From Candidatus Aenigmatarchaeota archaeon (GTDB lineage Archaea; Aenigmatarchaeota; Aenigmatarchaeia; GW2011-AR5; JAHLMP01): a stretch of DNA of 61,132 nt. The stretch's first letter is position 1; each line of letters opens with the position of its first letter. Of this stretch, positions 2,020 through 58,267 are shown piece after piece. The position numbers were made by a program, and so were the translations under genes. Under the pieces are notes generated by a model. That model worked only from the letters and a program-made list of their open reading frames with translations, had not been told where the DNA came from and did no database searches. The stretch spans positions 1,295-62,426 of the forward strand of contig JAWCLB010000003.1 in NCBI GenBank assembly GCA_039091735.1. The letters run 5' to 3'.

Positions 2020-2072
2020 ACTTTATAATTGTTCAGATAGGTATAAAAAAGTTTTTATATTGCTTATGTGCT

Positions 2073-7388: not shown

Positions 7389-7392
7389 TGAT

Positions 7393-8193
7393 GTGAAAAT
7401 GCTCAAAAAAGATAAAATATTATATCTAACTTGCATTGGAATTTGCTTTATAATAATTTATATTAATTTTACGTATTTCGCTAACCTCATACAGCTATTT
7501 GGGATGTTAAACTTCCTTGCTGCTTTTATAGGTCTTGGGATACCATTATTAATAAAATACAGGCAACTCAAGATAACAAGCGAGATAGAGAGCCAATTCC
7601 CAAACTTTCTGCGAGATGTCACAGCAAGCATAGAAACAGGTATGACCCTGCCACAGGCAATAAGATCTGTAAAGACAAACGACTATGGTCGTTTGTCACG
7701 CTATGTGAAAGATATCTCAGCAAAGCTTGAGTGGGGAATAGACTTTGAAAAGGTGTTAGAGGACTTTGCATCAAAGGTTGGATCCAAAACCATAAGAAGG
7801 TCTGTAAGGGCAATAAACGAGACCCATCGTTCAGGAGGCAAGATTGGAACTGTATTAAGCGCTGTGAGCGAATCACAAATAATTCTTGAGAGGGTAAAGA
7901 AGGAGAGGAGCTCATCTATATATACCCAAATGATTAATGGATATGTGATATTTTTTGTTTTTCTTGGTGTTATGTTTGCCCTTTCTAGATTTCTCATACC
8001 TGCATTTGAGTGGGAGGAGATAGGAACTGAAACAAAGGAAATCTACTCAGCAGTATTCAGAAACCTTGTAATTATCCAAGGTGCTTTTGCTGGTTTGGCT
8101 ATTGGAAAAATGGCTGAGGGTAGTGTGTTCGCGGGCATAAAGCACTCATTGGTCTTGGTTGCTATCGGCTATAGCGTTTTTACGATATTATAA
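7393..8193 (+). CDS. Type II secretion system F-domain protein (PilC/FlaJ/TadC-like), second half
   Basis: 266 aa, 4 nt after the previous gene. T2SSF-like domain FPNFLRDVTASIETGMTLPQAIRSV...RSVRAINETHRSGGKIGTVL with flanking TM segments. GTG at 7393 or ATG at 7399. Confidence 0.75.
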   Translation: MKMLKKDKILYLTCIGICFIIIYINFTYFANLIQLFGMLNFLAAFIGLGIPLLIKYRQLKITSEIESQFPNFLRDVTASIETGMTLPQAIRSVKTNDYGRLSRYVKDISAKLEWGIDFEKVLEDFASKVGSKTIRRSVRAINETHRSGGKIGTVLSAVSESQIILERVKKERSSSIYTQMINGYVIFFVFLGVMFALSRFLIPAFEWEEIGTETKEIYSAVFRNLVIIQGAFAGLAIGKMAEGSVFAGIKHSLVLVAIGYSVFTIL

Positions 8194-9032: not shown

Positions 9033-9329
9033 ATCTCCTGCATAGGTAGTAATCCAGTAGATTGCGATGGCCAAGATATTTGTGCTAATATTTGCAATGG
9101 TAACTTAGTCGTCAGTTACAAGGACTATTATGTTCAAGCTAACACGGGGACTTGCACTTACACCTTCGGGCCAACGATAGAGGATCGCGATCAGAGGTAT
9201 CGCAATCATCGGCCTCGAAGCCGCTGTAGTCTTTATCACTCAAAGGAGGAGGTTGGTAAAGTGAAGAAACATGGAGAGGTGACAACTGGACTTAGAATTC
9301 TGCTAGCAATCCCGATGGTTATCGATGAA
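9033..9329 (+). pseudogene. Start-less Cys-rich ORF remnant
   Basis: Open frame from the stop at 9030-9032 to TGA at 9327-9329. It encodes ISCIGSNPVDCDGQDICANICNGNLVVSYKDYYVQANTGTCTYTFGP...RIPASNPDGYR. The only ATG/GTG/TTG codon is the GTG at 9261, 66 nt before the stop. Its last 27 nt (before the stop codon) lie inside repeat copy 2. Confidence 0.35.
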
Positions 9330-9396
9330 AAGCTTTAAATTTACTCGTTAAATATTTAAAATGAAGGAGAGATTTATGAATAATAAAATCCTGATT
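9301..9396. repeat. Direct repeat copy 2 (96 nt)
   Basis: See copy 1. Identity decays to about 75% over the next 55 nt or so, and afterwards is detectable only at protein level. Confidence 0.95.
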
Positions 9397-9960
9397 GTAG
9401 CTTTAGCTGCGGTATTTATTGCCATAGGGGTTACTGCTTGCATTATTTTAAAGCAGAGCAAGGAACTAACCGCCATTAAATCAAATAATGAGGAAACTTC
9501 TGCACGCGATGTCAACAAAGAACCTGCTGTGACTGTAGTCTCTCAGGCAAGTTCTGAGGGCCTCCCCCTTGCTCTGACGTTATCCGTGACCCCCTTTGAT
9601 CAACAAAAGGTAGCAGTGGTTAGTGCAAAAGTCGGGAAACTACAAGGGTATCGGGCAGACTGGTTCAAGGCTACTGATGTTGCTATTCAGATTGTTCTGC
9701 CGGAAGGGTTGGCTTTAGAAAGCGGGTCGTTGACGTACCAAGGTAATCTCACAGGTGAGGAAACCCATGAGGTCAAAGCAGCAATCCGCGCAGTCCAGCT
9801 AGGAGAATGGATTCTGCAAGCTATCGCTTCTGGAGATGTCCCTCCTTATGGTCGCATCCAGGTATCAGCATTGTTGTTCATCTTAGTGCGGGAAGATTCT
9901 GTTCTCGTCAGTACGGAAGCCTTCACGCCTGAAGGGCAGGAAACGGAACCGAGAAAGTGA
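9361..9960 (+). CDS. Membrane-anchored beta-sandwich-like protein, paralog B (G+C-rich)
   Basis: 199 aa. The first 12 codons are identical to paralog A and the rest is diverged but colinear. Hand counts give 45-58% G+C for lines 9541, 9661 and 9781. Confidence 0.6.
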   Translation: MKERFMNNKILIVALAAVFIAIGVTACIILKQSKELTAIKSNNEETSARDVNKEPAVTVVSQASSEGLPLALTLSVTPFDQQKVAVVSAKVGKLQGYRADWFKATDVAIQIVLPEGLALESGSLTYQGNLTGEETHEVKAAIRAVQLGEWILQAIASGDVPPYGRIQVSALLFILVREDSVLVSTEAFTPEGQETEPRK

Positions 9961-10037
9961 AAATGCTCGATATCGAGTTCGTGAGGAAAGAGGTGGAAAG
10001 TAACCTAATGTAATTTATGGTCAAAAAAAACAGATAA

Positions 10038-17508: not shown

Positions 17509-18822
17509 CTAAGACTCACAGACCCTATAATATCCATTGTCATATATTCTATTCCAATCTTTGCAGTCATGTGTTGTAAATGCTAAATTAATGCCCCACT
17601 TTCTCGCAATAGATAGGTTACCTGTAAGTCCGAATTCTATTGCATCTCGTAACTTCTCTTCATCGGCATATTCGACATATAAATCTGCAAGAACCTTTTT
17701 TTGCGCAATAAATGTTATTGCATGGCCAAAAATCGGGTCTGCTATTATTTCTTCTTCACTTGTGTTTAATAAAGAGTTTATTGCCATAAAGGTTTCCTTT
17801 GACAAATAGCTACCTAGATTATCAGTATAACACAAAATGAAGACAGAGGAAGCAAAGTTAAGAAAGATTATTATCAACAAAAGCATTGCTGTCTTTTTAT
17901 TTTCTATTAACCTTGCTACTAGCAATGCGCTCAGAAAAGATATTATTATGTTGACCCTAAAGGATATCAGAGAATAAAATAACAAAAAGAACAATACGAG
18001 TGCTGAAAGCAATCTTGTTTCTTTTCTCAAAAATCCTATAAATAAACTACACACGATTATGGGGATTAAAAGAACGAACTCGTCCGACAATCTAAGACCG
18101 CCACTTAATAACCATCCCCACTCTTCAGGTAATGCAGCGCGAGGCAAGCTAAGGTTAAGAAGAATTGGCAAATAAATAATGAGAGCGATGATTAGAGGCA
18201 GAAGCAGCATCTCTGCATTAAAAGAATCTATTTTAAAAGTTGATAATATTCCAAGGAAAAATATTATAAATAAGAATAAGGAGAATGGATGAATGAGAGC
18301 AGATGCACCAAGCAGAATACCACTTAGAATTTGCTTTTTGCTATCATTCTTATCGATTGCAAATCCCAAAGAAAAAAATAGTAGTGCTAATGACGAAACA
18401 TGCAAAAGATGGGCACTTAGTAGTGTGAATACGAATAAAGATGATGAGAAGAAAAGGATTACCAAAAGTCTATTTACCATTCTTAATTTCAGCTTCCCTG
18501 TCAAAAACACCAATGAGATTACAAAAGCAATGTTGGAGAAAAGCTCAAACACAATATCTCCTATCAAATCATAGTTCAAAGATAGCAACCACAAAAATGT
18601 TGCCTTTAATGTGAAATATCCAGGTGGGTATGTCATTTTCCGACCAAGATAACTAAGGTTGTCCCATTCTGGAACATGCGCATTGTAAAAGGTTTCCCTT
18701 GCCTGTCTTTCATAGTACACGTTCCATAGCGTATTCTGAGTCACAGAAATAAACTTTGGAATATTTGCAAATACTAAAATTACAAATAGGCTTATTATTA
18801 GCAGTTTCATATCCTCAGACAT
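17509..18822 (-). CDS. Polytopic membrane protein, possible GT-C-type glycosyltransferase
   Basis: 437 aa with more than 10 predicted TM segments. The first loop, EWDNLSYLGRKMTYPPGYF, resembles the STT3/ArnT-type EL1 loop. No WWDYG motif seen. The functional call is weak. Confidence 0.45.
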   Translation of the reverse strand: MSEDMKLLIISLFVILVFANIPKFISVTQNTLWNVYYERQARETFYNAHVPEWDNLSYLGRKMTYPPGYFTLKATFLWLLSLNYDLIGDIVFELFSNIAFVISLVFLTGKLKLRMVNRLLVILFFSSSLFVFTLLSAHLLHVSSLALLFFSLGFAIDKNDSKKQILSGILLGASALIHPFSLFLFIIFFLGILSTFKIDSFNAEMLLLPLIIALIIYLPILLNLSLPRAALPEEWGWLLSGGLRLSDEFVLLIPIIVCSLFIGFLRKETRLLSALVLFFLLFYSLISFRVNIIISFLSALLVARLIENKKTAMLLLIIIFLNFASSVFILCYTDNLGSYLSKETFMAINSLLNTSEEEIIADPIFGHAITFIAQKKVLADLYVEYADEEKLRDAIEFGLTGNLSIARKWGINLAFTTHDCKDWNRIYDNGYYRVCES

Positions 18823-19622
18823 AAAATCACTATCAAAATTGAAGCTGCGAGGGTTGGAAAGAATATTTCTGTACCAAGCTTGTCAAACACGAAAGGTAGT
18901 ATGACTAAGAGAGCAAGTGAGGCTGCAAAGAGCAAAGACAGAAACTCTAAATTAAACCCTTTTCGAAAAAGTATGAATGCAAAAAAAGCGAATAAGATTA
19001 GACCTATCGGAAAATGTAATTCACGATTCCTAACAAAGATTTCTCTTTCAATAGATTCATTAGCTATCTCAGCCCTGAGATTATGAGTTCCATAATCAGT
19101 AATCCTCATTGCTTCTGAAAAGCTCTTGGTCTCTAAAGGTCCAACCTTTACTGGAATACTCTTCACGTGCTTTCCATCTACAAACAAATTCAAAAAATAT
19201 ACATGACCTTTGCAAACGCTATTTGTAAATGAAACATTAACATCGAATGATTCATATTGCTCAATTGTCTTCGGGATACTCAAAACGACTTCTTGTTTCT
19301 TGGTCTCACTGCATGGATAGTTCATCTTTCTAAAGACGAATGATAAAAACCTTTCATCTGAATTTATCCTTATTTTAGATTCTCCTATCGAAACATTATC
19401 TAAGCAGATTGATTTATTGGATGTATTAAACAGAAGGTTATCATTTAAGTAAATAGTTGATTCGTTGCCACCAGAATATTTGAAACACAAGCTTTGACCT
19501 TCAAAAATCAAATAATCCCTTTCTAGCAGACTCATCTCTGTTATATTAGCTGGTTTTCGAAACTCTATCAAATAAAGAGAACTCACACACATGAGAAGAG
19601 CAAACAAGATTACCTCTTTCAT
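18807..19622 (-). CDS. Hypothetical secreted/membrane protein (Ig-like domains, C-terminal TMs)
   Basis: 271 aa. Overlaps the downstream membrane protein by 16 nt, which implies an operon. Signal peptide, N-x-S/T-rich region, two C-terminal TM segments. Confidence 0.5.
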   Translation of the reverse strand: MKEVILFALLMCVSSLYLIEFRKPANITEMSLLERDYLIFEGQSLCFKYSGGNESTIYLNDNLLFNTSNKSICLDNVSIGESKIRINSDERFLSFVFRKMNYPCSETKKQEVVLSIPKTIEQYESFDVNVSFTNSVCKGHVYFLNLFVDGKHVKSIPVKVGPLETKSFSEAMRITDYGTHNLRAEIANESIEREIFVRNRELHFPIGLILFAFFAFILFRKGFNLEFLSLLFAASLALLVILPFVFDKLGTEIFFPTLAASILIVILCLRI

Positions 19623-19660: not shown

Positions 19661-21199
19661 TTATACTCTTTTCCACAAATCGTCTTCAATCCTCTTTCCT
19701 TCTCTCTTTTCCCATTCGCTTATGGGAATAGAATGCCTTCTTCTTATCTCCTCTCCAACACCCAAGCCATTATAGGCGCAGAAAGGAACAATCCCTTCAA
19801 AGGTTGCATAGTGAATCACGCACATCTTTAGTCTCTCAATGTTTATGTTCCACGGATCCTGAAACCACATCGAACCTATGTAAAGGGACTTATAATGAAA
19901 TTGTCTTAGCTCGTTGTACGTGCCTCCTATAATTGCCTTTATCAATATCTTTTTCAAATCAATTGGCGACTTTTCTTTGTCTATAAACTTGTCGATATTT
20001 CTTATGAAAGACAAAGCTATTCTGGGCTTTGTAAGCAAACCTCTAGTTTTTGATTGTTCTTTAATAAAAGTCATCAATCCTTCTACATCGACAAACCTTG
20101 TTATTGGTATTATTTTAGAATCTGAAATGAAAACATAAGTTGCGGCGCCACACATAGGGTTGGCTGTGAACTCAACCTGTTCCTTTCCTTTTAATACCTC
20201 GGCCAATTTTGATATAGGGTATACAAATGGCACAGGATAAAAATCGTCTTTCTTTATTTGGCCGTCCAATCCGTCTTCCAACACACCAAAAAGTTCAGCA
20301 TAGTCTACCCCTTCTTTTTCTATTATCTCTTCGGTTATATTCTGAAGCCTTCCACAAAATGAAACTGGTTGAAAGTTAACACCCCTTACAACGTCTATGT
20401 TCTCAACAGCATATTTAATTATCTCTGGCATCTCATGAAGATTTCTTTTCATGACAACGGGAACAAGCACAACACTTGAGAAGCCTATTTTCCTTAGATT
20501 GTCGATGGCCTTTTTATTTTCATTAATCCATGGGTTTGTATCTTCAGAGACACCATCAAAACTCATGTAAACAGTATTTACTCCTGCTCCAATTATTTTT
20601 TTGCAGTATTCCAAGGATTCTGACATTTTTATTGAGTTGGTATTTAGCTGGATATGGGTAAATCCCAATTCCTTTGAGATCTTTATAATATCAACCAAGT
20701 CATCTCTGATTGTTGGTTCTCCTCCTGTTATCTGAATGGCCTTTGATGGTACTGGCTTCTCATCTCTGGCCTGTCTCAGAATTTTTCTTATATCATCTAA
20801 ACTTGGTTCATAAACATATCCAGCAGCGCCTGCATTCATAAAGCAATAAGGACATCTAAGATTGCATCTATTGGTTACCAATAGGTTGGTCAAGACGGAT
20901 TGAGAGCAATGTTCCGGATAAAGCTTTTCTTTAGAATATGGTGTTGAATCAACACCCTTTGTTTCATTTTTAATCGATTTATATGTAGGCCCCTTTCCGA
21001 TTACCTTGTATTTCATCCATTTATAATATAATTTAGCGTCACTGAAAACAATAGACTTAAAATCGCCATGCTCAATGCATTTTTTCTTAAGCCATATTTT
21101 GTTATCTTCCTCAACAATATGTGCTTTTATTTTATGAATTCTGCCTTCTTTGAAGCATTTTGGACAAATGCTTTCCGTGTCTTCCAAAATCTTTTCCAT
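19661..21199 (-). CDS. Radical SAM enzyme with N-terminal zinc/iron-ribbon; tetraether lipid synthase (Tes/GDGT-MAS)-like architecture
   Basis: 512 aa. CX3CX2C motif NRCNLRCPYCF, followed by ITGGEPT. N-terminal CPKC...KKCIEHGDF, and a long C-terminal domain. The radical SAM call is firm. The Tes-like assignment is from memory of COG1964-type proteins. Confidence 0.7.
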   Translation of the reverse strand: MEKILEDTESICPKCFKEGRIHKIKAHIVEEDNKIWLKKKCIEHGDFKSIVFSDAKLYYKWMKYKVIGKGPTYKSIKNETKGVDSTPYSKEKLYPEHCSQSVLTNLLVTNRCNLRCPYCFMNAGAAGYVYEPSLDDIRKILRQARDEKPVPSKAIQITGGEPTIRDDLVDIIKISKELGFTHIQLNTNSIKMSESLEYCKKIIGAGVNTVYMSFDGVSEDTNPWINENKKAIDNLRKIGFSSVVLVPVVMKRNLHEMPEIIKYAVENIDVVRGVNFQPVSFCGRLQNITEEIIEKEGVDYAELFGVLEDGLDGQIKKDDFYPVPFVYPISKLAEVLKGKEQVEFTANPMCGAATYVFISDSKIIPITRFVDVEGLMTFIKEQSKTRGLLTKPRIALSFIRNIDKFIDKEKSPIDLKKILIKAIIGGTYNELRQFHYKSLYIGSMWFQDPWNINIERLKMCVIHYATFEGIVPFCAYNGLGVGEEIRRRHSIPISEWEKREGKRIEDDLWKRV

Positions 21200-32551: not shown

Positions 32552-33196
32552 GTGATTAAAATTAAGGTAAGCATTATTGGACCTAGAACTATTACAAGAA
32601 CCTGTGAATTTGCTAGGATAAAACAAGACAACTTGATGAGGCTTATAGATGGTGTTGGAAGGGTTCTTGCAAAGCACGGATTTGAGATTGTGATAATACC
32701 TAATGCAGGTGTTTCTTATCTCGTTTCCAAAACTTACAAGGCTCATAAAGGAAAGAAGGTTATAGGTTTAATGCCAAAAAATCCAGAGCCATTTGGCATA
32801 GAGCATCAAAAACTTCATTTAGATATTGTAGATGAGATAAAAGAATTGCCAGATTGGTATCATGTTGCAGGAAGACTTGTTATAGAAAGCGATTTCACAA
32901 TTTGTATTGGATTGTCAGGAGGAACAATGATGACACTATGTTGGGCCAAGTGGTATAGCACATGCTTAAATCAAGAAAGAAAGATTGTGATTTTTGAAAA
33001 CACTATATCAAGAAGACTACACCCAGAACTAGAGGCTATTATAAGGGCTGTGTATGTTAATAGCATAGATGAGCTCGATTATCTCATAGACTCTACATTT
33101 TGGTTAAGTCCAATGGACTTTGTAAGAAGCCTGCAGCTACAATTTGAAAGAAACAAGGAATATAGAGATTTAAAAATGGTCAAAAAAAGGAAGTAA
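32552..33196 (+). CDS. Rossmann-like protein, TIGR00725/LOG-like (weak call)
   Basis: 214 aa with a GTG start. IGLSGGTMMTLCWA and overall small-Rossmann layout. Low certainty on family. Confidence 0.4.
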   Translation: MIKIKVSIIGPRTITRTCEFARIKQDNLMRLIDGVGRVLAKHGFEIVIIPNAGVSYLVSKTYKAHKGKKVIGLMPKNPEPFGIEHQKLHLDIVDEIKELPDWYHVAGRLVIESDFTICIGLSGGTMMTLCWAKWYSTCLNQERKIVIFENTISRRLHPELEAIIRAVYVNSIDELDYLIDSTFWLSPMDFVRSLQLQFERNKEYRDLKMVKKRK

Positions 33197-33471: not shown

Positions 33472-34206
33472 ATGACAATCGAAAGGATAAAATCTGGAAT
33501 ACATGGTTTGGATAAGTTAATAGAGGGCGGTTACCCAAAAGGCTCAGTAATCCTTGTTTCAGGCGGGCCAGGAACAGGAAAGACTATCTTTGCTTTGCAG
33601 TACATTTACAATGGGGCAAAAGAGGGAGAGGCTGGATTATACATAACCTTTGAAGAAGACCCAAAAAGCCTTAAAGAAAGTGTTAAAAATCTCGGAATGG
33701 ATTTTGACGAGCTTGAAGATAAAAAGAAGGCTGCTATAATAAAATTGGATCAGGTTTCTGATCTTCCGGACTTTTTAAAGATAGTAGAGAGTAACATCAA
33801 AAGGCTAAAGGCTAAGAGGCTGGTTATAGATTCTTTGTCGTCTCTTGAAGTCTTGTCATCAACCTTTCAATCTATTGCAAGAGATGTTTCTCCGATAACG
33901 CTGAGAGAAGGCTATAAGATGATGCCAGAAAAAGAGGCCATCATAAGAAGATTTCTTTATAAAATCATCAACTACTTAAAGGGATTAGATGTGACAACTT
34001 TGCTAACCTCTGAGTCACAGGATACGCAGTATTCAAGATATGGTGTTGCTGAGTTTGTGGTTGATGGAATAATAAAATTAGAATATGAGATTGTTGGCAA
34101 GATTATCCAGAGAAACATCCTTGTCGTTAAACTAAGAAAAAGTAAGATAGAGGGAGGAAGAAGGAGCATAGAAATTGGAAAGGGAGGAATTAAGGTTGTT
34201 GATTGA
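33472..34206 (+). CDS. KaiC/RadA-like (RAD55 family) ATPase
   Basis: 244 aa. GIHGLDKLIEGGYPKGSVILVSGGPGTGKT (Walker A), RLVIDSLS (Walker B). Confidence 0.8.
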   Translation: MTIERIKSGIHGLDKLIEGGYPKGSVILVSGGPGTGKTIFALQYIYNGAKEGEAGLYITFEEDPKSLKESVKNLGMDFDELEDKKKAAIIKLDQVSDLPDFLKIVESNIKRLKAKRLVIDSLSSLEVLSSTFQSIARDVSPITLREGYKMMPEKEAIIRRFLYKIINYLKGLDVTTLLTSESQDTQYSRYGVAEFVVDGIIKLEYEIVGKIIQRNILVVKLRKSKIEGGRRSIEIGKGGIKVVD

Positions 34207-34277: not shown

Positions 34278-35405
34278 TTATTGAGTAATATATAAAGAAA
34301 AGTAACCTGCTGTTGTGTCTCTTTTAATCTTTTTCAATTCTATTTTTCTTCCAATAAATCCAGAAATAACACCAGAGAGCAAACCTCTAAACATTGTGAA
34401 ATCTATTTCATCAGCCCATTGCGTCCAAGGGAAGTAATTTACAAATATCTCATACTTTCCTTTTTTCTCCAAAGCCAAAATGTCACCAAAGCCTAAGGCT
34501 GGGAAAAAGTCTGTTATGAATTTGCAAGGCTCTTGCTTTCCTGACAACTCAGCTAATCTTTTCCCAAAATCAAAGCTGCAATCCCAAAGAATTTTTAAAC
34601 CATTTTTAATCTTTTTCAATTCTTTCTCGAGAATGTACATAAAGCTTGCTTCACATAGAAAGAATCGCTCGCCGCGATAAGTAACTTGCCCATGCTTATA
34701 ATCAAAAAAGCCAGCATCTATCAAAGACTTTAAGCTATTTCTTGCCCAGCTTGTTTCTCTAATTTCATTAAAGATTTTATAATCTTGAGATAGCTCAGCC
34801 TTCTCCAATTTTCTACATCTTATTGGCTTATAACCCATTTTTACTAAAGTTTCGTAAGGGGCTGCGATTACCTCGCATTCCTTATCTCCTCTACCTTGGC
34901 ACTTGATTTGAATTGCTTCTATGCCTGGATTTTCGCAGGCATAGGCCCAAATGCCTGCTATGCTTCCTCCTGAGAAAATATAACCGAGACCGTTTTTTGA
35001 GCAGATTATATAGTCTCGCATTCTTATTTCTAAGACCTTGCTATCATAGTCTATATGATGAGAAAGTCTTCCATAAGATGAAATTGTTTCAATATATCTA
35101 ATTAGAAAGTACACGTAGTTCAAAAATTCTTTTTTTGTTGTTGAGAGCATTGTTGGAAATTTAGAATATGAAGAATATGAAAAAGTAAATTTCTTTCCAA
35201 TTGTGTACAATTCTTTTTTAAATTTTTTCAATTTTCTCTCTAAATTTTCTAATAAATTTTCTGAAAGCGTTATTTCTCTTATTTTTATTTCCTTTTGCTT
35301 TCCAACATTTTCGCAAATAAATCCAGGAAAGTCTATAATTTCTAATTTAGAAGAGTATATATTTCTTATATACCAACTTACTATCGCGTCTTTTATTGAA
35401 ACCAT
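34278..35405 (-). CDS. V4R-domain protein (two V4R-like halves)
   Basis: 375 aa. The first half contains the V4R hallmark C-x-G-x-GD-x-x-C (IKCQGRGDKECEVIA). Overlaps the UbiA-1 stop by 13 nt. Confidence 0.55.
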   Translation of the reverse strand: MVSIKDAIVSWYIRNIYSSKLEIIDFPGFICENVGKQKEIKIREITLSENLLENLERKLKKFKKELYTIGKKFTFSYSSYSKFPTMLSTTKKEFLNYVYFLIRYIETISSYGRLSHHIDYDSKVLEIRMRDYIICSKNGLGYIFSGGSIAGIWAYACENPGIEAIQIKCQGRGDKECEVIAAPYETLVKMGYKPIRCRKLEKAELSQDYKIFNEIRETSWARNSLKSLIDAGFFDYKHGQVTYRGERFFLCEASFMYILEKELKKIKNGLKILWDCSFDFGKRLAELSGKQEPCKFITDFFPALGFGDILALEKKGKYEIFVNYFPWTQWADEIDFTMFRGLLSGVISGFIGRKIELKKIKRDTTAGYFSLYITQ

Positions 35406-36235
35406 ATTCCACTCAATATTATTAAAAAGAATGCAAAATATATCTCTGAGTCTGCTATAATATCATATAACCAAAATTTGTCGATTCCACTTATTTTAAA
35501 TAAATAGTAATATATTAAATTGAACCCAACCAAACCTAATAGAAAGATAGCTCTTAGAGGCAAAAGTTTAAGATAAATTAAGAAGAGTAATATCAATCCA
35601 CTCCCTATATTCATAAAATTCAGTAATTTCATAGTTTTTTCTACTCCTATTTTTACAGGAATTGTGTTTACACCCTCCTTTTTATCTCCTTTAATGTCTC
35701 GAAGATCAAAAAAGATAGTATTTATAAAATCCCTTAAAAATACAAAAATTGCAAAACTAAATACCACGGAGTTTAAAATTCCTATAGAAATCCCAGCTAT
35801 AAAGACTGGGAGTGACCAAAAAATTCCCAACAATATATTTTTCATTAGAAATGTTTTTTTGAAAAATTTATAAACTAAGAATAAGAGAGGAGTTAAAAGA
35901 ACTATAAAAAATATTTTAATGTTGTCCAATAGAAAAAGAGAAATTAACAATGAGAATAAGGAGAAAAGAATAGAAATTGGAATAAAAAATTTTCTATATT
36001 TTCTCGAGAAACTTACGCGTTCAGGATAATTTATTATGTCTTCTTTCTCTCCTCCTAATCTATTGAGTGTGTAAGTAAAGAAAGTAAGAAAGAATATTAC
36101 AACAAGAGAAAGATTCATACTTTCATTTAGTAAAATAAAAGTTATTGCACCCCACAAAGCTGCAGCTATTGATATATGAACTGAAGAGAAGACAAAAAAC
36201 TCAAAAAACTTTCTTATGAGTTTATAGCAGTTCAT
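35393..36235 (-). CDS. UbiA-superfamily prenyltransferase, paralog 1 (first Asp-rich motif degenerate)
   Basis: 280 aa, about 8-9 TM segments. First motif NRLGGEKED, where paralog 2 has NRITDVKED. Second motif FDLRDIKGDKKEG. Confidence 0.7.
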   Translation of the reverse strand: MNCYKLIRKFFEFFVFSSVHISIAAALWGAITFILLNESMNLSLVVIFFLTFFTYTLNRLGGEKEDIINYPERVSFSRKYRKFFIPISILFSLFSLLISLFLLDNIKIFFIVLLTPLLFLVYKFFKKTFLMKNILLGIFWSLPVFIAGISIGILNSVVFSFAIFVFLRDFINTIFFDLRDIKGDKKEGVNTIPVKIGVEKTMKLLNFMNIGSGLILLFLIYLKLLPLRAIFLLGLVGFNLIYYYLFKISGIDKFWLYDIIADSEIYFAFFLIILSGIWFQ

Positions 36236-36271
36236 AATTTAATTTATAAAACTGATGATTTTAAATAATTA

Positions 36272-37327
36272 TTAAATTCTTTTGACAGTTTTCCACTTAA
36301 CTAAGTAGAAGGGAAAGACAAGATTTACAAACTTTGGCACTCGCTTTACTTCTTCTTCATTTTCCTTTGTAATTCTCCCTTCTAAAATATCTTTCTCAAA
36401 ATCTTCATTTGTCTTTCCTTGATAGATAATTCTTCTCTTGAAATAGTAAACCAAATCATCTAATAATTCTTTTTTCCATAAAACATCGTAATTTTCATTG
36501 TTGATTATTGATTTTGCAGCTAAATAACCTGAAAGGATTGCAAATTTTACACCGAAGCCTTTAGAGGCATCTTGAAATTCTGCTGCCTCTCCAACATAAA
36601 GCTTTCCGTGATTTAAGGCAGAAAAAGGTATATTAAAGTTACCATAGCCGCTAACTTCGCATACCTTTGTAGCTCCTTTAATAGCATCGCTTATTATTTC
36701 ATTTTCTTTTATTAGCTTCGTAAAATATTCTCTAATTTTACCATAATCTGGAGAAGAGCAAAATATCGTTGTGACTACATCTCCTGAATTTTTAGTATAA
36801 GGAAGTATGTAAGCATATCCATGGGGTGCATATCTATTATCATAAAAGAGGTATATCGCATCTTCTATGTTTAAATCACAATAATGATAACCAAAGGCAA
36901 TACCATCAATTCTCTTTGCTCCCGTAGCTATTATATTTGCTTCTTTTTCTGGTATAGTTTTATTGAAATGAAACTCAGCTCCTAATTTTTTCGCTTCGTC
37001 TAGAAGAACACTCTCCAAACTTCTTTTATCATTTCCACGAAGAAAAGTATAAAATATTGGCTTTTTTGAAATTATTTCACTCATTCTTAAAGAAGGTGAG
37101 AATTTAAATACTTTATAGATTTTTTTCATTTCAGGTAATTTTACTATCTTCTCTAATTTTTCAGCAGTATTATATTCTCTCCCATAATTTCTGAAGGAGT
37201 GGACAGCAATTTGAAAATTTGGTTTTGGTCTATTTCCTCTCTCGTATACAACTACATTCTCATTTGCCTTTGCAAGAGTTATTGCTGCTGTTAATCCTGC
37301 GGGACCAGCTCCTAATACCTTAATCAT
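36272..37327 (-). CDS. FAD-dependent oxidoreductase, geranylgeranyl-reductase-like
   Basis: 351 aa. N-terminal dinucleotide fold MIKVLGAGPAGLTAAITLAK...VVVYER. Size and context fit the GGR family. Confidence 0.6.
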   Translation of the reverse strand: MIKVLGAGPAGLTAAITLAKANENVVVYERGNRPKPNFQIAVHSFRNYGREYNTAEKLEKIVKLPEMKKIYKVFKFSPSLRMSEIISKKPIFYTFLRGNDKRSLESVLLDEAKKLGAEFHFNKTIPEKEANIIATGAKRIDGIAFGYHYCDLNIEDAIYLFYDNRYAPHGYAYILPYTKNSGDVVTTIFCSSPDYGKIREYFTKLIKENEIISDAIKGATKVCEVSGYGNFNIPFSALNHGKLYVGEAAEFQDASKGFGVKFAILSGYLAAKSIINNENYDVLWKKELLDDLVYYFKRRIIYQGKTNEDFEKDILEGRITKENEEEVKRVPKFVNLVFPFYLVKWKTVKRI

Positions 37328-37421
37328 ACTTTATTGAATTCATTCAGAAACTTAAAAAGGCATGTATGCAAAATTTCGTATAAGATATTTAGCCAATATA
37401 ATGAATCATTAAGATAAATAT

Positions 37422-38243
37422 TCACCCTAACAAACAATTCCCTATAAATGCAAGTAATCCTATTACTATAAACTCTCCATCAGCAAGGATATCTGTTAAA
37501 AACTTTAGGTCTGTTTTGTGTATCAAATAAATATATGCAAATGTATAGAATATTACTAAACTTATAGCATAGCCGATTGGCGAAATAAAACCTAAAAACG
37601 TGACTATAAATAATAAAATAAAAGAAAGTAAATTAATAACTGAAAGTAAAATCTTTGTTTTACTTAAGCCTAGTCTCATAGGCAATGTTTCTATCTTACA
37701 CTTCTTATCTCCTTCAATATCTCTAATATCAAAGGTGATTGTATTTCCAATTCCTTTTAGAAAAATAAACAAAAAAAGAGAAAAAGATGTAAAAGATATC
37801 AATAATTCAAATTTCTCAAAATAAATTAATGGTAAAATGGTTACAGAAATAGACCATAATAATGAGACCCATATATTTTTTATTCCTAATAGCCTCTTTA
37901 ATCTTATTGGTGCAACGCTATAAATAACTACACTAATCAATGGTATAAAAGCAAATATACCTACCAAAATACTTCTAAAAAATGCTATGAATAAGGCAAA
38001 AACGTAACTAATTATAGAGGAGATTAAAATTTTTGTTTTATGTTTTTGTATAAATGAAACCCTTTCTGGATAATTTATCTTATCTTCCTTTACGTCAGTT
38101 ATTCTATTAAGATTATAAACAGAAAAAACTGATAAGAATACTATTAATAAAAGCTCTAGAGAAATTGGCAATTTAAATAATAATGAACTTGTATAAGTTA
38201 AACTAACGCCTGTAAGTGCTACAAATATTGAAGTTATACCCAA
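37422..38243 (-). CDS. UbiA-superfamily prenyltransferase, paralog 2 (DGGGP-synthase-like)
   Basis: 273 aa. NRITDVKEDKINYPERVSF (N-x3-D-x3-D) and FDIRDIEGDKK (D-x2-D-x3-D). Confidence 0.75.
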   Translation of the reverse strand: MGITSIFVALTGVSLTYTSSLLFKLPISLELLLIVFLSVFSVYNLNRITDVKEDKINYPERVSFIQKHKTKILISSIISYVFALFIAFFRSILVGIFAFIPLISVVIYSVAPIRLKRLLGIKNIWVSLLWSISVTILPLIYFEKFELLISFTSFSLFLFIFLKGIGNTITFDIRDIEGDKKCKIETLPMRLGLSKTKILLSVINLLSFILLFIVTFLGFISPIGYAISLVIFYTFAYIYLIHKTDLKFLTDILADGEFIVIGLLAFIGNCLLG

Positions 38244-38317
38244 GTGTAGTTAGGAATTTATTGAGAAATGTTTTCATAATTATTATTTTATAGATTTTTA
38301 ATTTTTAAATAAATCTA

Positions 38318-38473
38318 AATGAATTTGCAAGGCTCTTGCTTTCCACTAAGCTTTGCAAGCCTTTTCCCAAAATCAAAGCTGCAGTCCCAAAGAATTTTTA
38401 AACCATTTTTAATCTTTTTCAATTCTTTCTCGAGAATGTACATAAAGCTTGCTTCACATAGAAAGAATCGCTC
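38318..38473 (-). pseudogene. 156-nt duplicated internal fragment of the V4R gene
   Basis: Matches 34516-34670, except for a 17-nt replaced patch, one substitution and one A-run indel. No open frame. Followed at 38485-38503 by about 19 nt resembling UbiA-2 at 37837-37855. Confidence 0.8.
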
Positions 38474-38900
38474 TCCTTTGTAAGATGGTTACAGACATAG
38501 CCCAAAACAAATATAAATGTCTCAGCCGTTTTCTTGAGTCTAAAACCCTTTTTATTTATTGTTCAATAATTAGAAGGTTTTCTGCAAAGCTCTAAACACA
38601 TCGTAATTTGTATCAGCGATTTAAGTCTTTTTAAAATGCATTTGTGCGATCTTCATGTTTTTAGCAGCAAATTTTATGCATATACTATTTATAGCGATTC
38701 AAAATAAACTGACGATAATGATACTATTCACTCTAGCCTAAAACGATTTCTTGCCAATCTTTAATTAAAATCAAGAAATTAAAGCAAACGACAATAATTG
38801 ACACGATGATTATTTTTATTGAGCAGCGTTTTTAGTGTCAACTTTTAAATAAGACATACCTCTCAGCAATACTTTTTATTAATTGCACCAAAATATCATT

Positions 38901-46555: not shown

Positions 46556-47872
46556 ATGAAATCAATCCTAGAGTCTGTTCCAGGGTCTCTCTATGTTATA
46601 ATAGCATTTGCTGCTGGAGCAATCATGCTAATATTTATCTTAAGATTTCTGCCTGCTGAGAGCGAGATGACTATCAAACACGAGATACCACGAAGGCTTG
46701 CAGATTTTGCAGAAGATTGCTGGAGAGCACATAGATATGGAATGGACCCTGTGTCAGAGGTCTGCAAGACATTGAGAATAACTAATAAGACAAACGAGAG
46801 CGAGATCACGAAATTCTTGGATTGCAAAAACCTGCCAAACTATGAATGCTATCCTGACAATTGTACTTATTGTAAGTCTGATTTCCACGAAGATAATGAT
46901 AAGCTAATAGCATTCATAGAAGATGCTGGAGAGATAAGGATAAGCTATGTAGACAGGAAGATAAGGATATCTCTAATAGAATGCGATTCCGTTTGCCAAT
47001 GCAAGAGGCTTTGCATAGAGAAGAGCGCTGAAATGAACAAGGAGTGTATGAAGGCCTTATTTTATGCAGATTGCAAAAATGATGTAGATAAATTTTATGA
47101 GGATTGCCTAATTGGCTGTGAGATAACGAGTACAAGCACAACAACTACTACGACATCTACTACAACAACTACTATAAAGCCTGATATATTGATATATATG
47201 GTCAAGGAGTATGCTAGCCCAGACAAGATAAAACAGCTTCTCGAAGGAGCTGGATATGTTACTGATGTCCTAAAAAGGGAAGATGGACATTACATAACAG
47301 AATCGTTACTCTCAAAATACAAGCAGGTGTGGATACTTGATACTACTGAAAACATCGCCATTCCTGAATCAGAGGTTATGGCAGTAGTCAATTACTATAA
47401 TAAGGGTGGCAATCTATTATTATCAGGAGAATGCTGCGGTAATATTAGCAATCCGTTAAGATGTCATGTAGATATTATAGATGCTATATCTGAGAATTTT
47501 GGAGTCAGGTTAAGCACTACAAAAGAGATATGCATTTTCATAGATCGAGAAGAGAATAGTAGCTGTACCATGCCATCATTAGTCAACTTTTATCCACATC
47601 CAATAACAGAAGGCATAACCAAACTAAGCACATCAAAAACCGACATAGACATTACTATAACAAACCCGAATGTTGTTCCTGTTTCTACTGTAAATGAAAA
47701 GATATATATAGCGGTTTTAGATTCTGCTGATGAAAGGGGAAGGATAGTATTTGACTCATCGTTTTTTAGGTTTCTTCCTATTCCAAAAGAGGGATACGTG
47801 GGTGGTCCTGAATACTGTGACAATTCCCAATATGCATTAAACATAGCAAATTGGTTGAATAAAAGTGATTGA
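46556..47872 (+). CDS. Membrane-anchored Cys-rich extracellular protein with Thr-run linker
   Basis: 438 aa. N-terminal TM, a Cys-rich module, a TSTSTTTTTTSTTTTT linker, and a C-terminal alpha/beta-like domain (VWILDTTEN, GGNLLLSGE). Confidence 0.55.
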   Translation: MKSILESVPGSLYVIIAFAAGAIMLIFILRFLPAESEMTIKHEIPRRLADFAEDCWRAHRYGMDPVSEVCKTLRITNKTNESEITKFLDCKNLPNYECYPDNCTYCKSDFHEDNDKLIAFIEDAGEIRISYVDRKIRISLIECDSVCQCKRLCIEKSAEMNKECMKALFYADCKNDVDKFYEDCLIGCEITSTSTTTTTTSTTTTTIKPDILIYMVKEYASPDKIKQLLEGAGYVTDVLKREDGHYITESLLSKYKQVWILDTTENIAIPESEVMAVVNYYNKGGNLLLSGECCGNISNPLRCHVDIIDAISENFGVRLSTTKEICIFIDREENSSCTMPSLVNFYPHPITEGITKLSTSKTDIDITITNPNVVPVSTVNEKIYIAVLDSADERGRIVFDSSFFRFLPIPKEGYVGGPEYCDNSQYALNIANWLNKSD

Positions 47873-50563: not shown

Positions 50564-52501
50564 ATGCCAAGGCAGCCAACATCAATGGAATATAAGGTTT
50601 TCAAGGAAGAGGATATTTTGGCAAAGAGGCCAACATCACTCTATGAAAGATTGTGTAATGTAGCTGAAAAAATTATAAAAATTGAACCTGACCAAAAAAC
50701 CAAAGAAAAAATAGAGCGAGCAATAAAGATAACACATCTGAATGTCTCCCCAGAGGGCGTTGGCTCTCTTACTGTTCTTTCATGCCTTATAATATGCTTT
50801 CTTGGTTTTCTAGGAATTTTGCTAAGTTTTTATCATAATATCCCAGTTTTCTATGGAATCTTCATATTTCTTCTCTCACTTCCTGTAGGTTATTATCTCT
50901 ATAATTATCCTATGAGATATGAAAAGAGGTTTTTAACAGCTATTGGCTCTGAGATAACCTTCTTGATTTTATACATGATTGTCTATTTGAGAGAATCCCC
51001 AAATCTTGAGGGTGCGCTTCGCTTTGCATCGAAAAATTTGTCAGGTCCATTAGCATTGGATATAAGAAAGCTTATGTGGGATATCGAAGTTGGCAAGTAT
51101 AAGACAGTTGATGAGGCATTGATAGATTATACGAGTTTATGGACTGAAGATAGATACTTCATAGAGGCAATCCAGATGCTGAGATCAAGCTTAAAATATA
51201 CAGAGGAGAAAAGGATAGCAACACTTGAAGAGGCAATAAGCATTGTCTTAGAGGGAGCAGAGGAAAAGACAAAACATTATTCTCAAGAGTTGAAGACCCC
51301 TATTCTGCTTTTGCATGCCCTTGGAATTCTCTTGCCTGTTATGGGCTTGGTTATGTTTCCAATTGTTGGGATATTCATGAAAATAAAAGTAGAGGTATTG
51401 TTTCTCGGATACGACGTGATATTACCTCTAGTACTTTATTTCTTCATAACAGATATAATGCAAAGAAGACCACCAACATCGTCACCTATTGCTGAGCACC
51501 CACATATGGCATCAAAAAATAGATTTATCATAAACATCAAAGGCAAACCGCACTCTATTCCATCAATTTTAATAGCTCTTATTATTTCTATTCCAGTTAT
51601 TGTATTTGGTGTTTATACATATCTCTCTAATACTGGTGATAAACTGATAGAGTCAATAATCATAACAACAGGGATTATGATAGGCTTTGTGATGTATTAT
51701 TTCCTCTCTTCATTTCAAAAGGTAAAACTAAGAGAAGAGTTGAGAAAAATTGAATTAGAATTCACAGAAGCGCTGTTCCAACTTGGTAACCAGGTATCAA
51801 CTGGTGTTCCTATTGAGGTTGCAATAGAACGCTCAACAAAAGCCATAGGCGAAATGAATATAAAGAAATTCTTCGCTGTAATTCTAAGAAATATGCAAAG
51901 ATTGGGTATGACATTCTCTCAGGCAATATTTGACCGTGAATATGGGGCAGCCTCATTGTATCCTTCAGTACTAATAAAGTCTATAATGAAAATAGTTGTA
52001 GATTCTGCAAAAAAGGGTGTACAAACCGCCTCTGTGACAATGCTGAACATCTCCAAATATCTGAGAAATGTTCATCAAACCCAAGAAAGGATTCATGATA
52101 TGCTAGAAGATGTCTTGTCATCATTAAGATTTCAAGGGTTTTTGCTAACGCCTTTGGTATCTGGTATAATTGTGACCATGGCAACTATTATGATAGGCAT
52201 ATTACAACAGATTACAGCATCTGTCTCTGGCATTGATGTTCAGACATACATGGCCGGTATTCCGTTTCTACTTAGCAAAATCGGCATTACACCTGGTGCA
52301 TTTCAACTTATCTGCTCGATCTACTTTATTGAAGCCTCTATCCTAACAGGAATGTTTATCAATCGAATAGAAAATGGCGAGGATGAGATAGGAAAGCAGA
52401 ATTTGACATTGAGAATTCTAGTAATAGGTGGCTTTATCTATGCAATCTCGCTGTTTGGCTCTTTGTTTATATTCGGGCCTTTAACAAAAGTGCCTGTCTA
52501 A
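50564..52501 (+). CDS. Large polytopic membrane protein with two T2SSF-like cytoplasmic domains (FlaJ/PilC-like)
   Basis: 645 aa. LRFASKNLSGPLALDIRKLMWDIEVGKYKTVDEAL and LGNQVSTGVPIEVAIERSTKAIGE...RLGMTFSQAI resemble T2SSF domains. Many TM segments. Confidence 0.5.
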   Translation: MPRQPTSMEYKVFKEEDILAKRPTSLYERLCNVAEKIIKIEPDQKTKEKIERAIKITHLNVSPEGVGSLTVLSCLIICFLGFLGILLSFYHNIPVFYGIFIFLLSLPVGYYLYNYPMRYEKRFLTAIGSEITFLILYMIVYLRESPNLEGALRFASKNLSGPLALDIRKLMWDIEVGKYKTVDEALIDYTSLWTEDRYFIEAIQMLRSSLKYTEEKRIATLEEAISIVLEGAEEKTKHYSQELKTPILLLHALGILLPVMGLVMFPIVGIFMKIKVEVLFLGYDVILPLVLYFFITDIMQRRPPTSSPIAEHPHMASKNRFIINIKGKPHSIPSILIALIISIPVIVFGVYTYLSNTGDKLIESIIITTGIMIGFVMYYFLSSFQKVKLREELRKIELEFTEALFQLGNQVSTGVPIEVAIERSTKAIGEMNIKKFFAVILRNMQRLGMTFSQAIFDREYGAASLYPSVLIKSIMKIVVDSAKKGVQTASVTMLNISKYLRNVHQTQERIHDMLEDVLSSLRFQGFLLTPLVSGIIVTMATIMIGILQQITASVSGIDVQTYMAGIPFLLSKIGITPGAFQLICSIYFIEASILTGMFINRIENGEDEIGKQNLTLRILVIGGFIYAISLFGSLFIFGPLTKVPV

Positions 52502-52504
52502 GTT

Positions 52505-52601
52505 GCCCCGTCCGGGATTTGAACCCGGGTCTCAGCCTTTCTCCTTTTTGAGAGGGCTGTATCCTTATCCGTCAAATGTGACCGGACTAGACTAACGGGG
52601 C
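52505..52601 (-). tRNA. tRNA-Glu(CUC) with 10-nt canonical-position intron and an oversized D-arm
   Basis: Minus-strand sequence GCCCCGT TA GTCT [24-nt D-loop] GGAT A CAGCC CTCT-CAA-AAA-GGAG-AAA GGCTG AGAC CCGGG TTCAAAT CCCGG ACGGGGC. The BHB is CTCT/GGAG with bulges CAA and AAA. Removing 52539-52548 leaves the loop CTCTCAA. The D-loop is about 13 nt too long. Confidence 0.6.
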
Positions 52602-53553: not shown

Positions 53554-53673
53554 GCGAGAGTAGCCAAGTGGTCAAAGGCGCTAGGCTTAGGAGCTAAGGG
53601 CGAAGTTCAGGAGCTTGGCGTTGAGTCACCTAGTCCCTTAGTGGGTTCGTCGGTTCGAATCCGACCTCTCGCA
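53554..53673 (+). tRNA. tRNA-Leu(UAG), class II, 36-nt canonical intron (53592-53627)
   Basis: GCGAGAG TA GCC AAGTGGTCAAA GGC G CTAGG CTTAGG|intron|A CCTAG, variable arm TCCCTTAGTGGGTTC, GTCGG TTCGAAT CCGAC CTCTCGC A. BHB helix is CTTA/TGAG with bulges GGA and TCA. Confidence 0.88.
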
Positions 53674-58170: not shown

Positions 58171-58267
58171 GCGAGGGTAGCCAAGCGGTCAAAGGCGGTA
58201 GGCTCAAGACCTACTGGCTTAGTGCCTTCGCAGGTTCGAATTTTTTGCGAGAATCCTGCCCCTCGCA
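58171..58267 (+). tRNA. tRNA-Leu(CAA), class II, with 13-nt intron at T-loop position 59/60 (58241-58253)
   Basis: GCGAGGG TA GCC AAGCGGTCAAA GGC G GTAGG CTCAAGA CCTAC TGGCTTAGTGCCTTC GCAGG TTCGAA|ttttttgcgagaa|T CCTGC CCCTCGC A. BHB helix is TTCG/CGAG with bulges AAT and AAT. Confidence 0.85.

Follow-up and report, generated by a model that had tools for sequence, protein, structure and literature searches.

Why are membrane prenyltransferases of the UbiA family encoded together with a protein whose predicted fold resembles that of phenol sensors? The question is raised by a gene cluster in a stretch of 61,132 nucleotides (nt) from contig JAWCLB010000003.1 of a Candidatus Aenigmatarchaeota archaeon (this whole stretch is called the window below). 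One strand carries the genes for two UbiA proteins (UbiA-1 and UbiA-2), a flavoprotein that resembles geranylgeranyl reductases (GGRs) and a tandem V4R protein, which meet a gene for a KaiC-like ATPase on the other strand (Table 1). Written by gene type, with FADox for the flavoprotein, the arrangement is UbiA>FADox>UbiA>V4R> <KaiC. An earlier note, made from the sequence letters, had read the four minus-strand genes as a possible isoprenoid-lipid handling module with a ligand-binding partner, and this interpretation is partly supported by our analysis. The coordinates of the open reading frames (ORFs) confirm the four genes with their gaps of 94 nt (UbiA-2/GGR-like) and 36 nt (GGR-like/UbiA-1) and the 13-nt overlap of UbiA-1 and V4R, but the KaiC-like ATPase had been missed, although it is linked to the V4R gene as tightly as UbiA. 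All four genes are under purifying selection, with ratios of non-synonymous to synonymous substitution rates (dN/dS) of 0.10–0.23, and the G+C content of the cluster (0.29–0.31) is below that of the flanks (~0.35). In a crude hydropathy scan, both UbiAs are polytopic, with many 19-residue hydrophobic segments, and the V4R, GGR-like and KaiC-like proteins have none. We propose that the cluster represents a conserved archaeal module that makes or tailors membrane isoprenoid ether lipids, in which a V4R/KaiC pair would feed or gate prenylation and saturation, and we give this reading about even chances.

The linkage of V4R, UbiA and KaiC-like genes is far beyond chance. We surveyed species-representative genomes, in which ORFs were called and searched with the window proteins and all neighbours were clustered. 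The 375-amino-acid V4R family was encoded at 58 loci of Aenigmat-, Micr-, Alti-, Iain- and Pacearchaeota and of metagenome-assembled genomes (MAGs) labelled Thermoplasmatota or Thermoplasmatales. Neighbours were counted where at least 3.5 kb flanked the V4R gene on each side, as was the case for 28 loci (Aenigmat-, Micr-, Alti- and Iainarchaeota, and Thermoplasmatota MAGs). A KaiC-like gene was present within 4.5 kb at 27 of these loci, UbiA was found near the V4R gene at 24, UbiA or a UbiA-like protein at 27 and the flavoprotein at 13, and any other family at five at most. Three of the four full-flank loci without UbiA encode a membrane protein of 274–290 amino acids that has the second UbiA motif only (hhalign E 3.7e-5). 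The V4R gene stands beside UbiA, flavoprotein and KaiC-like ATPase genes at the first three loci examined (Altiarchaeota, Micrarchaeota, and the 475-kb JGI contig Ga0078972_1000040). Further carriers of the module include the 1.1-Mb contig CAVSBQ010000002.1 and a contig of 577 kb. Order and orientation vary by lineage, as seen from KaiC>UbiA>V4R>FADox in Micrarchaeota and KaiC>V4R> <FADox<UbiA<UbiA, with two UbiAs and a flavoprotein, in Thermoplasmatota. The adjacency is kept, overlapping reading frames are frequent, and the median junctions are tight (0 nt for UbiA>V4R, 12 nt for KaiC>V4R, −10 nt for both V4R>UbiA and FADox>V4R). An adjacency that survives rearrangement with such tight junctions is strong evidence for a functional link. 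The conserved linkage thus supports the proposal of a functionally linked isoprenoid-handling module with a partner of the ligand-binding type, and the V4R–UbiA neighbourhood, whose conservation the note had left to be checked, holds in at least five archaeal lineages, frequently with overlapping genes. The linkage is specific to the subfamily, since UbiA and V4R genes are missing from the context of bacterial members of the flavoprotein family, and a UbiA relative of the methanogen type (P0145) is accompanied by a TPR gene but not by V4R. No ring-biosynthesis, quinone, tetrapyrrole, transporter, surface-protein or DNA-binding genes were recurrent near the module in the neighbour clustering. 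A literature search, with the Makarova 2017 KaiC survey outside its coverage, returned no paper that describes V4R with UbiA, a prenyltransferase or KaiC, and the view that a V4R–prenyltransferase arrangement had not been characterised agrees with this. The component families are known; the partnership of KaiC-like ATPase, tandem V4R protein and UbiA, in which an accessory pair joins an operon of isoprenoid-lipid enzymes, is described in no paper of the searched literature.

The two UbiA assignments were correct, as UbiA-1 and UbiA-2 reach 71.1 and 82 bits against PF01040 (gathering score 34.2). A profile of 24 V4R-linked UbiAs aligns over its full length to the digeranylgeranylglyceryl phosphate (DGGGP) synthase of M. 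jannaschii (PDB 6M31; E 2.6e-16, 63 bits), compared with 37 bits for chlorophyll synthase (E 1.7e-8) and 27 bits for AfUbiA (E 1.9e-5), and no further solved UbiA structure is found at E 1. UbiA-1 on its own also has 6M31 as its best PDB match (E 9e-6). By profile comparison, DGGGP synthase (DGGGPS; EC 2.5.1.42), which transfers geranylgeranyl from GGPP to GGGP, is the closest solved-structure relative of the V4R-linked subfamily. The relation of both copies to DGGGPS, for which a phylogeny had been suggested, stands at the level of the profile, but no DGGGPS equivalog cut-off is reached: against PRK12882, PRK12883 and PRK12872.1-1, with cut-offs of 278–353 bits, the window UbiAs score 26–46 bits and those of related loci 25–73. 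In NCBIfam, the module UbiAs match best to two uncharacterised 'prenyltransferase' models, PRK13591 and PRK12884, and chlorophyll-synthase and homogentisate-phytyltransferase models give low scores that are similar to those of the DGGGPS models. In a rough neighbour-joining tree, UbiA-1 groups with its orthologue in locus L007, and the Thermoplasmatota copies were duplicated separately. The V4R-linked UbiAs have in common with DGGGPS the polytopic topology, the second Asp-rich motif and a D-x-IN-x-P-x-R segment after motif 1; they differ in lying far below all DGGGPS equivalog cut-offs and in motif 1, which is NDxxDxxxD in DGGGPS and N-R/H-x-x-D/E/G-x-x-x-D in the subfamily. Genes of the subfamily are nearly always accompanied by V4R and KaiC-like partner genes, of which we know no description for DGGGPS.

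All UbiA motifs quoted in the earlier note, and the segment INYPERVSF, are present as claimed. UbiA-2 has NRITDVKED as motif 1, which corresponds to N-R-x-x-D-x-x-x-D without an Asp at the second position, and FDIRDIEGD as motif 2. The corresponding motifs of UbiA-1 are NRLGGEKED, where Gly stands in place of the central Asp and the next residue is a Glu, and FDLRDIKGD; motif 2 is intact in both. In the UbiA superfamily, the two Asp-rich motifs (NDxxDxxxD and DxxDxxxD) bind Mg2+ and the diphosphate. INYPERVSF, identical in the two proteins, had been regarded as an unusual extension. It aligns opposite INKPSRPLP of 6M31, part of the canonical D-R-INKPSRPLP segment, and has the subfamily consensus IN-x-PER; it is therefore the normal segment after motif 1 (canonical INKPxRP) in a degenerate form. 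The consensus of motif 1 is N-R-x-T-D-x-x-E-D in DPANN archaea and N/D-H-x-x-E-x-x-x-D in the Thermoplasmatota copies, and three loci (L053, L054, L063) have a near-canonical DGGGPS-like N..TD...D.INKPHRP adjoining the V4R gene. The Asp-to-Gly change of UbiA-1, from which the earlier note had supposed that catalysis may be altered, is real. Its orthologue in L007 has NRMGIEESD, which likewise has no central Asp but a Glu at the next position, and the orthologue in an 89% nucleotide-identical strain (L070, a Logan contig from another run), itself 89.6% identical to UbiA-1, keeps NRLGGEKED exactly. From this retention and a dN/dS of 0.225 (UbiA-2: 0.17), it follows that UbiA-1 is maintained and not decaying. 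At five loci (L001, L043, L048, L049, L056), a variant module adjoins the V4R gene, in which a UbiA-like protein that keeps GDIRDxxxDK replaces the ordinary UbiA, and its neighbour is a methyltransferase of ~350 amino acids that depends on S-adenosylmethionine (SAM) and matches Ubie_methyltran and CMAS.

A lipid context is also given by the tetraether lipid synthase Tes, a radical SAM protein with an N-terminal zinc ribbon that is encoded in the same window and reaches 548.2 bits against NF045702 (cut-off 450) and E 1.6e-121 against GDGT-MAS (PDB 7TOL). The presence of Tes indicates that the organism processes diether lipids into tetraethers, which is an obvious place for enzymes of the DGGGPS and GGR types. 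This is noteworthy in a DPANN genome, as the group is usually described as being without lipid biosynthesis. A related genome (GCA_044343345.1, locus L066) has a gene with the two Pfam domains of Tes ~6 kb from its module. No further lipid genes were detected among the scanned ORFs of the window, several ORFs between 46 and 53 kb being outside the Pfam scan.

The V4R assignment, made from sequence, misses the cut-off of PF02830 (16.6 bits at residues 162–181 only, gathering score 31), and an NCBIfam scan gave no match, but the family profile and the predicted fold support it. A few homologues have precomputed PF02830 or PF06505 matches, and the family is conserved over its full length at 37–70% identity. 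A profile of 43 members matches the phenol-sensor domain of MopR in two pieces (E 2e-4): residues 227–294 align to the N-terminal (XylR_N) part of MopR, and residues 150–193 to its zinc-site segment, so that the E..C..C stretch corresponds to MopR 159–201. The Cys-Glu-Cys-Cys pattern of the zinc site (C135, E163, C169, C177) occurs in the N-terminal module only and is absent from the C-terminal module; within the family, E163 and C177 do not vary, and the conservation of C135 and C169 is 90% or higher. The linker residues Y209, N213 and S224 are invariant as well. The AlphaFold2 model of the protein (predicted local distance difference test score, pLDDT, 93; predicted template modelling score, pTM, 0.92) shows the same order of secondary structures twice, and its best PDB folds in Foldseek are the sensor domains of PoxR, MopR and DmpR, TRAPPC3/Bet3, including the palmitoylated TRAPPC3 structure 6AQ3, and the V4R protein MJ1460. 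The Foldseek probabilities are ~1, but the E-values are only 2e-3 to 5e-2 and the template modelling (TM) scores, normalized to the target, 0.45–0.59. At the sequence level, the internal repeat is weak (hhalign E 0.016). Because the order of secondary structures is repeated in the model and the profile has two MopR-like segments, we conclude that the protein is a tandem of two MopR/PoxR-like (XylR_N/V4R) modules with a zinc site in the first only. In an exhaustive HMMER search, all 367 representatives of the family had at most 391 amino acids and were matched over the whole protein; domain fusions, be it to UbiA, KaiC or others, are therefore absent from the family. A search for contigs that encode the window's own V4R protein returned no record. 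Pfam detects no sigma-54 AAA+ domain or helix-turn-helix domain in the V4R protein, and none is fused among the 367 representatives. The dN/dS of the V4R N-terminus is 0.12. V4R domains are regarded as modules that bind hydrophobic molecules and signal either in cis or in trans (PMC2253512).

Its partner is a KaiC-like protein with a clear PF06745 match (207.3 bits, gathering score 26.6), an intact Walker A motif (GGPGTGKT) and an acidic FEE stretch after it. It stays below the NCBIfam cut-offs of the two-domain circadian KaiC (PRK09302; 152 versus 408) and ArlH (53 versus 215), and KaiC_arch_3 also matches below its cut-off. PF06745 and Walker A are common to this protein and the archaeal single-domain KaiC-like ATPases (ArlH and the KaiC_arch families); its scores are below the cut-offs of the named archaeal subfamilies too, and its conserved partner is a tandem V4R protein. 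In 2017, Makarova et al. reportedly proposed KaiC-like ATPases as general archaeal signalling hubs. The pair recalls the XylR, DmpR, MopR and PoxR sensors, with which the N-terminal V4R module shares the fold and the Cys/Glu/Cys/Cys zinc-site pattern, and in both cases a V4R module of the ligand-binding type is partnered with a P-loop ATPase. The differences are that the V4R protein consists of two fused modules, presumably forming an intramolecular pseudo-dimer, that it has neither the AAA+ sigma-54 domain nor the helix-turn-helix domain of XylR and DmpR, its ATPase being a separate protein of the RecA/KaiC type, and that its partner genes encode membrane lipid enzymes and not catabolic operons.

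The flavoprotein had been called GGR-like, and this description holds in terms of structure, as the AlphaFold2/Foldseek comparison and the family profile put archaeal GGRs nearest, but not in terms of family cut-offs: it reaches 60.1 bits against TIGR02032 (GGR superfamily; cut-off 158.8), 35.8 bits against NF041080 (cut-off 580) and 21.2 bits against PF22578 (GGR_cat; cut-off 27). Its AlphaFold2 model (pLDDT 96.5) finds in Foldseek the DGGGPL reductase Ta0516 (PDB 3OZ2; E 1e-20, TM 0.72) at the top, followed by Sulfolobus GGR, and the archaeal GGR structures 3OZ2 and 3ATQ/4OP* occupy ranks 1–7 (E 1e-20 to 1e-17), above halogenases and monooxygenases. Ta0516 is also the best PDB match of the family profile (E 1.5e-12). 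The protein shares with the archaeal GGRs (Ta0516, 3OZ2; Sulfolobus GGR, 3ATQ) the FAD-binding GxGxxG and the G-D/E-A-A motif, which is GEAA instead of GDAA here, and is ~50–100 residues shorter, scoring below both TIGR02032 and the equivalog cut-offs. Judged by the predicted fold, it is a divergent GGR relative, and it is under purifying selection (dN/dS 0.095).

From these components, we infer a lipid acceptor, a direction of the flavoprotein reaction, a V4R ligand, contacts between the proteins and a regulating or chaperoning role of the V4R/KaiC pair as follows. One or two UbiAs, derived from DGGGP synthase, would transfer a polyprenyl group, most likely geranylgeranyl, onto a lipid acceptor of the glycerol-phosphate type, and the GGR-family flavoprotein, present at about half of the loci, would modify the double bonds of the chains, most likely by reduction. 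The ligand of the tandem V4R protein would be hydrophobic, with the substrate or product of the isoprenoid pathway step as the most plausible candidate, and V4R would either hand it to the prenyltransferase or report its level; the pair may regulate the prenyltransferase, deliver its substrate or remove its product. The KaiC-like ATPase would couple the ligand state of V4R to ATP turnover. The pair could thereby represent, by analogy, the sensor-plus-ATPase logic of XylR, DmpR and MopR split over two proteins and deprived of the DNA-binding domain. That V4R and the KaiC-like ATPase serve as a dedicated lipid-sensing, ATP-dependent gate or substrate-delivery partner of a DGGGPS-type prenyltransferase is a tentative and rather doubtful extension of this scheme. 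If it were true, a control or chaperone system would for the first time be described for the committed, membrane-embedded step of ether-lipid synthesis in archaea; its conservation would extend from DPANN to Thermoplasmatota, and the V4R/Bet3 fold would have a prokaryotic lipid-linked role. To our knowledge, little is understood about the control and organisation of ether-lipid synthesis at the archaeal membrane, and descriptions of accessory proteins of DGGGP synthase are lacking. The module, kept even in very small DPANN genomes, is a concrete candidate for such control, and it bears on the actual function of the proteins that are counted as 'DGGGPS' homologues in DPANN genomes, on whether some DPANN archaea finish or tailor their own lipids, Tes being present, and on the roles of the V4R/Bet3 fold before its eukaryotic use in vesicle tethering.

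Several observations weigh against this lipid-synthesis scheme. Motif 1 of the module UbiAs lacks the second-position Asp of the canonical NDxxDxxxD, the central Asp is additionally replaced in UbiA-1 and in the Thermoplasmatota copies, and no module UbiA reaches any NCBIfam equivalog cut-off. In GGRs, YxWxFP is the lipid-binding motif and an active-site Cys is conserved. The flavoprotein has GYAYILP (family consensus GYAYLLP) in place of YxWxFP, aligned to GYIWVFP of Ta0516, and no Cys in the region aligned to SPVRCGEG of Ta0516, the Cys of which we take to be the catalytic one. Bacterial members of the wider flavoprotein family occur in unrelated contexts, the ligands of the nearest characterised V4R sensors are phenolics and not lipids, and one metatranscriptome, from the source study, gave only spurious 19-nt matches to the locus.

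The phenolic ligands of the closest solved V4R structures suggest a different possible pathway, in which the product would be a prenylated aromatic, for example a pigment or a molecule that resembles a quinone, a tocopherol or a phenazine: V4R would bind the aromatic acceptor, as MopR, PoxR and DmpR bind phenols, UbiA would prenylate it, the GGR-like protein would saturate the side chain, and in the variant loci the UbiE/CMAS-like methyltransferase would methylate it. The same three families are combined in bacteriochlorophyll synthesis, with BchJ (V4R), BchG (a UbiA-type synthase) and BchP (a GGR-type reductase). The replacement of UbiA by a UbiA-like protein and a SAM methyltransferase (Ubie_methyltran, CMAS) at five loci fits such a pathway, as does the fact that the UbiAs match models of chlorophyll synthase and homogentisate phytyltransferase about as well as those of DGGGPS. 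However, the family profile clearly favours DGGGP synthase over chlorophyll synthase (63 versus 37 bits), ring-biosynthesis, quinone and tetrapyrrole genes do not recur near the module in the neighbour clustering, and DPANN hosts have small genomes and are mostly fermentative. We consider a prenylated-aromatic product improbable. Tetrapyrrole genes are absent from the neighbourhood, the UbiA profile prefers DGGGPS, and the likeness to BchJ/BchG/BchP may amount to no more than the parallel pairing of a V4R carrier and a prenyltransferase.

There is likewise only a small chance that the KaiC-like protein and V4R form a signalling pair that is merely co-located with the organism's ordinary DGGGP synthase and GGR and has its output elsewhere, for example in response to a hydrophobic stress signal. 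The hub role reportedly proposed for KaiC-like ATPases in archaeal signalling speaks for this reading, and the lack of any fusion of V4R with UbiA or KaiC among the 367 representatives is in line with such independence, but the adjacency outlasts many rearrangements, with overlapping frames in several orders, which is the usual signature of cooperating proteins, and DNA-binding or other output domains are not recurrent nearby.

The earlier note had speculated about scavenging or remodelling of host lipids in a DPANN-like genome. In such a scheme, V4R would take up a host-derived lipid, and UbiA and GGR would re-tailor it. Most carriers of the module are indeed DPANN MAGs, a group widely reported to have incomplete lipid pathways (PMC8975820; PMC11868695), and proteins of the V4R/Bet3 fold can hold lipid, as in palmitoylated TRAPPC3 (6AQ3) among the fold matches. 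A DPANN-specific adaptation is nevertheless quite improbable, as the same module, including two UbiAs and a flavoprotein, is found in MAGs labelled Thermoplasmatota or Thermoplasmatales, the need of UbiA for a polyprenyl diphosphate donor points to synthesis and not to uptake, and transporters and surface proteins are not recurrent among the neighbours. With Tes in the window, host-lipid scavenging is neither required nor specifically indicated, and this part of the earlier interpretation lacks specific support.

UbiA-2 has a history of its own. Its identity to the only UbiA that adjoins V4R in L066 is 91.6%, compared with 77% for GAPDH, 61% for KaiC and 64% for V4R among the neighbours of the two loci. 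In L066, the order is V4R'>UbiA>V4R> <KaiC, where V4R' is a truncated paralogue of 300 amino acids. V4R' lies at 9080–9982 (+) of that locus, directly upstream of the UbiA gene, and its last ~55 residues are far closer to full-length V4Rs than the rest, which suggests gene conversion. A V4R remnant is located 75–240 bp upstream of UbiA-2 in the window, in a non-coding stretch of 640 bp with stops in the surrounding frames. It is 94.6% identical to the window's own V4R at the amino-acid level (tblastn) and 92.4% at the nucleotide level over 158 bp (blastn), and 83.6% identical to the 300-amino-acid paralogue of L066 (tblastn). The remnant is, by these comparisons, probably a relic of the truncated paralogue that precedes UbiA in L066. 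In L070, the strain with 89% identity, GGR-like>UbiA-1>V4R are spaced as in the window and UbiA-2 is missing; L070 is collinear with positions 34983–37418 of the window, from inside V4R up to 3 nt after the stop codon of UbiA-2, where the similarity ends. Synonymous divergence (dS) between the window and L070 is 0.64, 0.23 and 0.39 for the three common genes, which suggests a mosaic history. From the end of this homology and the identity to the L066 UbiA, it follows that GGR-like>UbiA-1>V4R is the core of the lineage and that UbiA-2 and the V4R remnant were recently acquired. UbiA-2 is thus a recent strain-specific insertion, probably made by recombination through V4R sequence with a related Aenigmatarchaeon, and the core of this strain's module is KaiC / V4R / UbiA-1 / GGR-like. 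The ATG that matches the start of the UbiA-2 orthologues (38277, in the stretch 38241–38277; MKKLLKKFLNI-LGYTS...) is 34 nt upstream of the TTG and out of frame by +1, so that UbiA-2 either starts at TTG, 11 residues shorter, or has a frameshifted N-terminus; an independent Logan contig carries the identical start sequence.

That the arrangement is an assembly chimera made at the 158-bp repeat, and the cluster not real, is scarcely credible: the Logan contigs are fragmented, with strain variants across 34.5–38.4 kb and breaks at the repeat, and UbiA-2 has a best relative different from that of its neighbours, but GGR>UbiA-1>V4R is found with unchanged spacing in the independent run (L070), mismatch-free Logan contigs of the source run X1 cross the GGR/UbiA-2 junction (37070–37591) and the stretch from the 5' end of UbiA-2 into the remnant (37858–38344), V4R has an intact ORF that is collinear with its homologues, and L066 offers a natural V4R'>UbiA>V4R arrangement. 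Two joints of run X1 Logan contigs (35239/36464 and 35986/38294) skip 1224 and 2307 bases, with a shorter side of only 23 letters each, and loose contig ends of this run are found at 35815–35874 and 38283–38358; they may stem from strain variants that differ in cluster content, or from k-mer artefacts.

Table 1. Features of the window, with the cluster genes first.
Feature	Positions	Strand	Remarks
UbiA-2	37422–38243	−	273 amino acids, TTG start
GGR-like FAD-dependent oxidoreductase (flavoprotein)	36272–37327	−	351 amino acids
UbiA-1	35393–36235	−	280 amino acids
Tandem V4R protein	34278–35405	−	375 amino acids
KaiC-like single-domain RecA-superfamily ATPase	33472–34206	+	PF06745 207 bits; convergent with the V4R gene
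V4R gene remnant	38318–38485	−	56 codons, corresponding to residues 242–297; direct repeat with 34515–34682
Tetraether lipid synthase Tes	19661–21199	−	NF045702 equivalog; 13 kb from the cluster
SLOG-like protein	32552–33196	+	214 amino acids; between GAPDH and KaiC-like genes
ORF	17509–19622	−	directly downstream of Tes, same strand; no Pfam or NCBIfam match
ORF	1267–3056	−	no Pfam match
ORF	46556–47872	+	no NCBIfam match
ORF	50564–52501	+	no NCBIfam match
tRNA (Rfam)	52504–52601	−	98 nt
tRNA (Rfam)	53554–53673	+	120 nt
tRNA match (Rfam)	58171–58232	+	36 bits
Two adjacent T2SSF-domain proteins	6519–8193	+	membrane proteins

The gene between GAPDH and the KaiC-like ATPase has a borderline match to SLOG cluster4 (LOG-like) and is not found at the corresponding position in L066, and PADLOC gave no meaningful defence-system match. 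Four sizeable ORFs without matches in the scans named in Table 1 encode proteins of 250–645 amino acids. The context genes of this hot-spring Aenigmatarchaeon include a split RNA polymerase A, MCM and intron-type tRNAs. Three Rfam tRNA matches have no ARAGORN counterpart: the two of 98 nt and 120 nt probably contain introns, and the third is weak and lies inside an Mre11-like ORF. The two adjacent T2SSF-domain membrane proteins resemble platform proteins of the type IV pilus/archaellum type.

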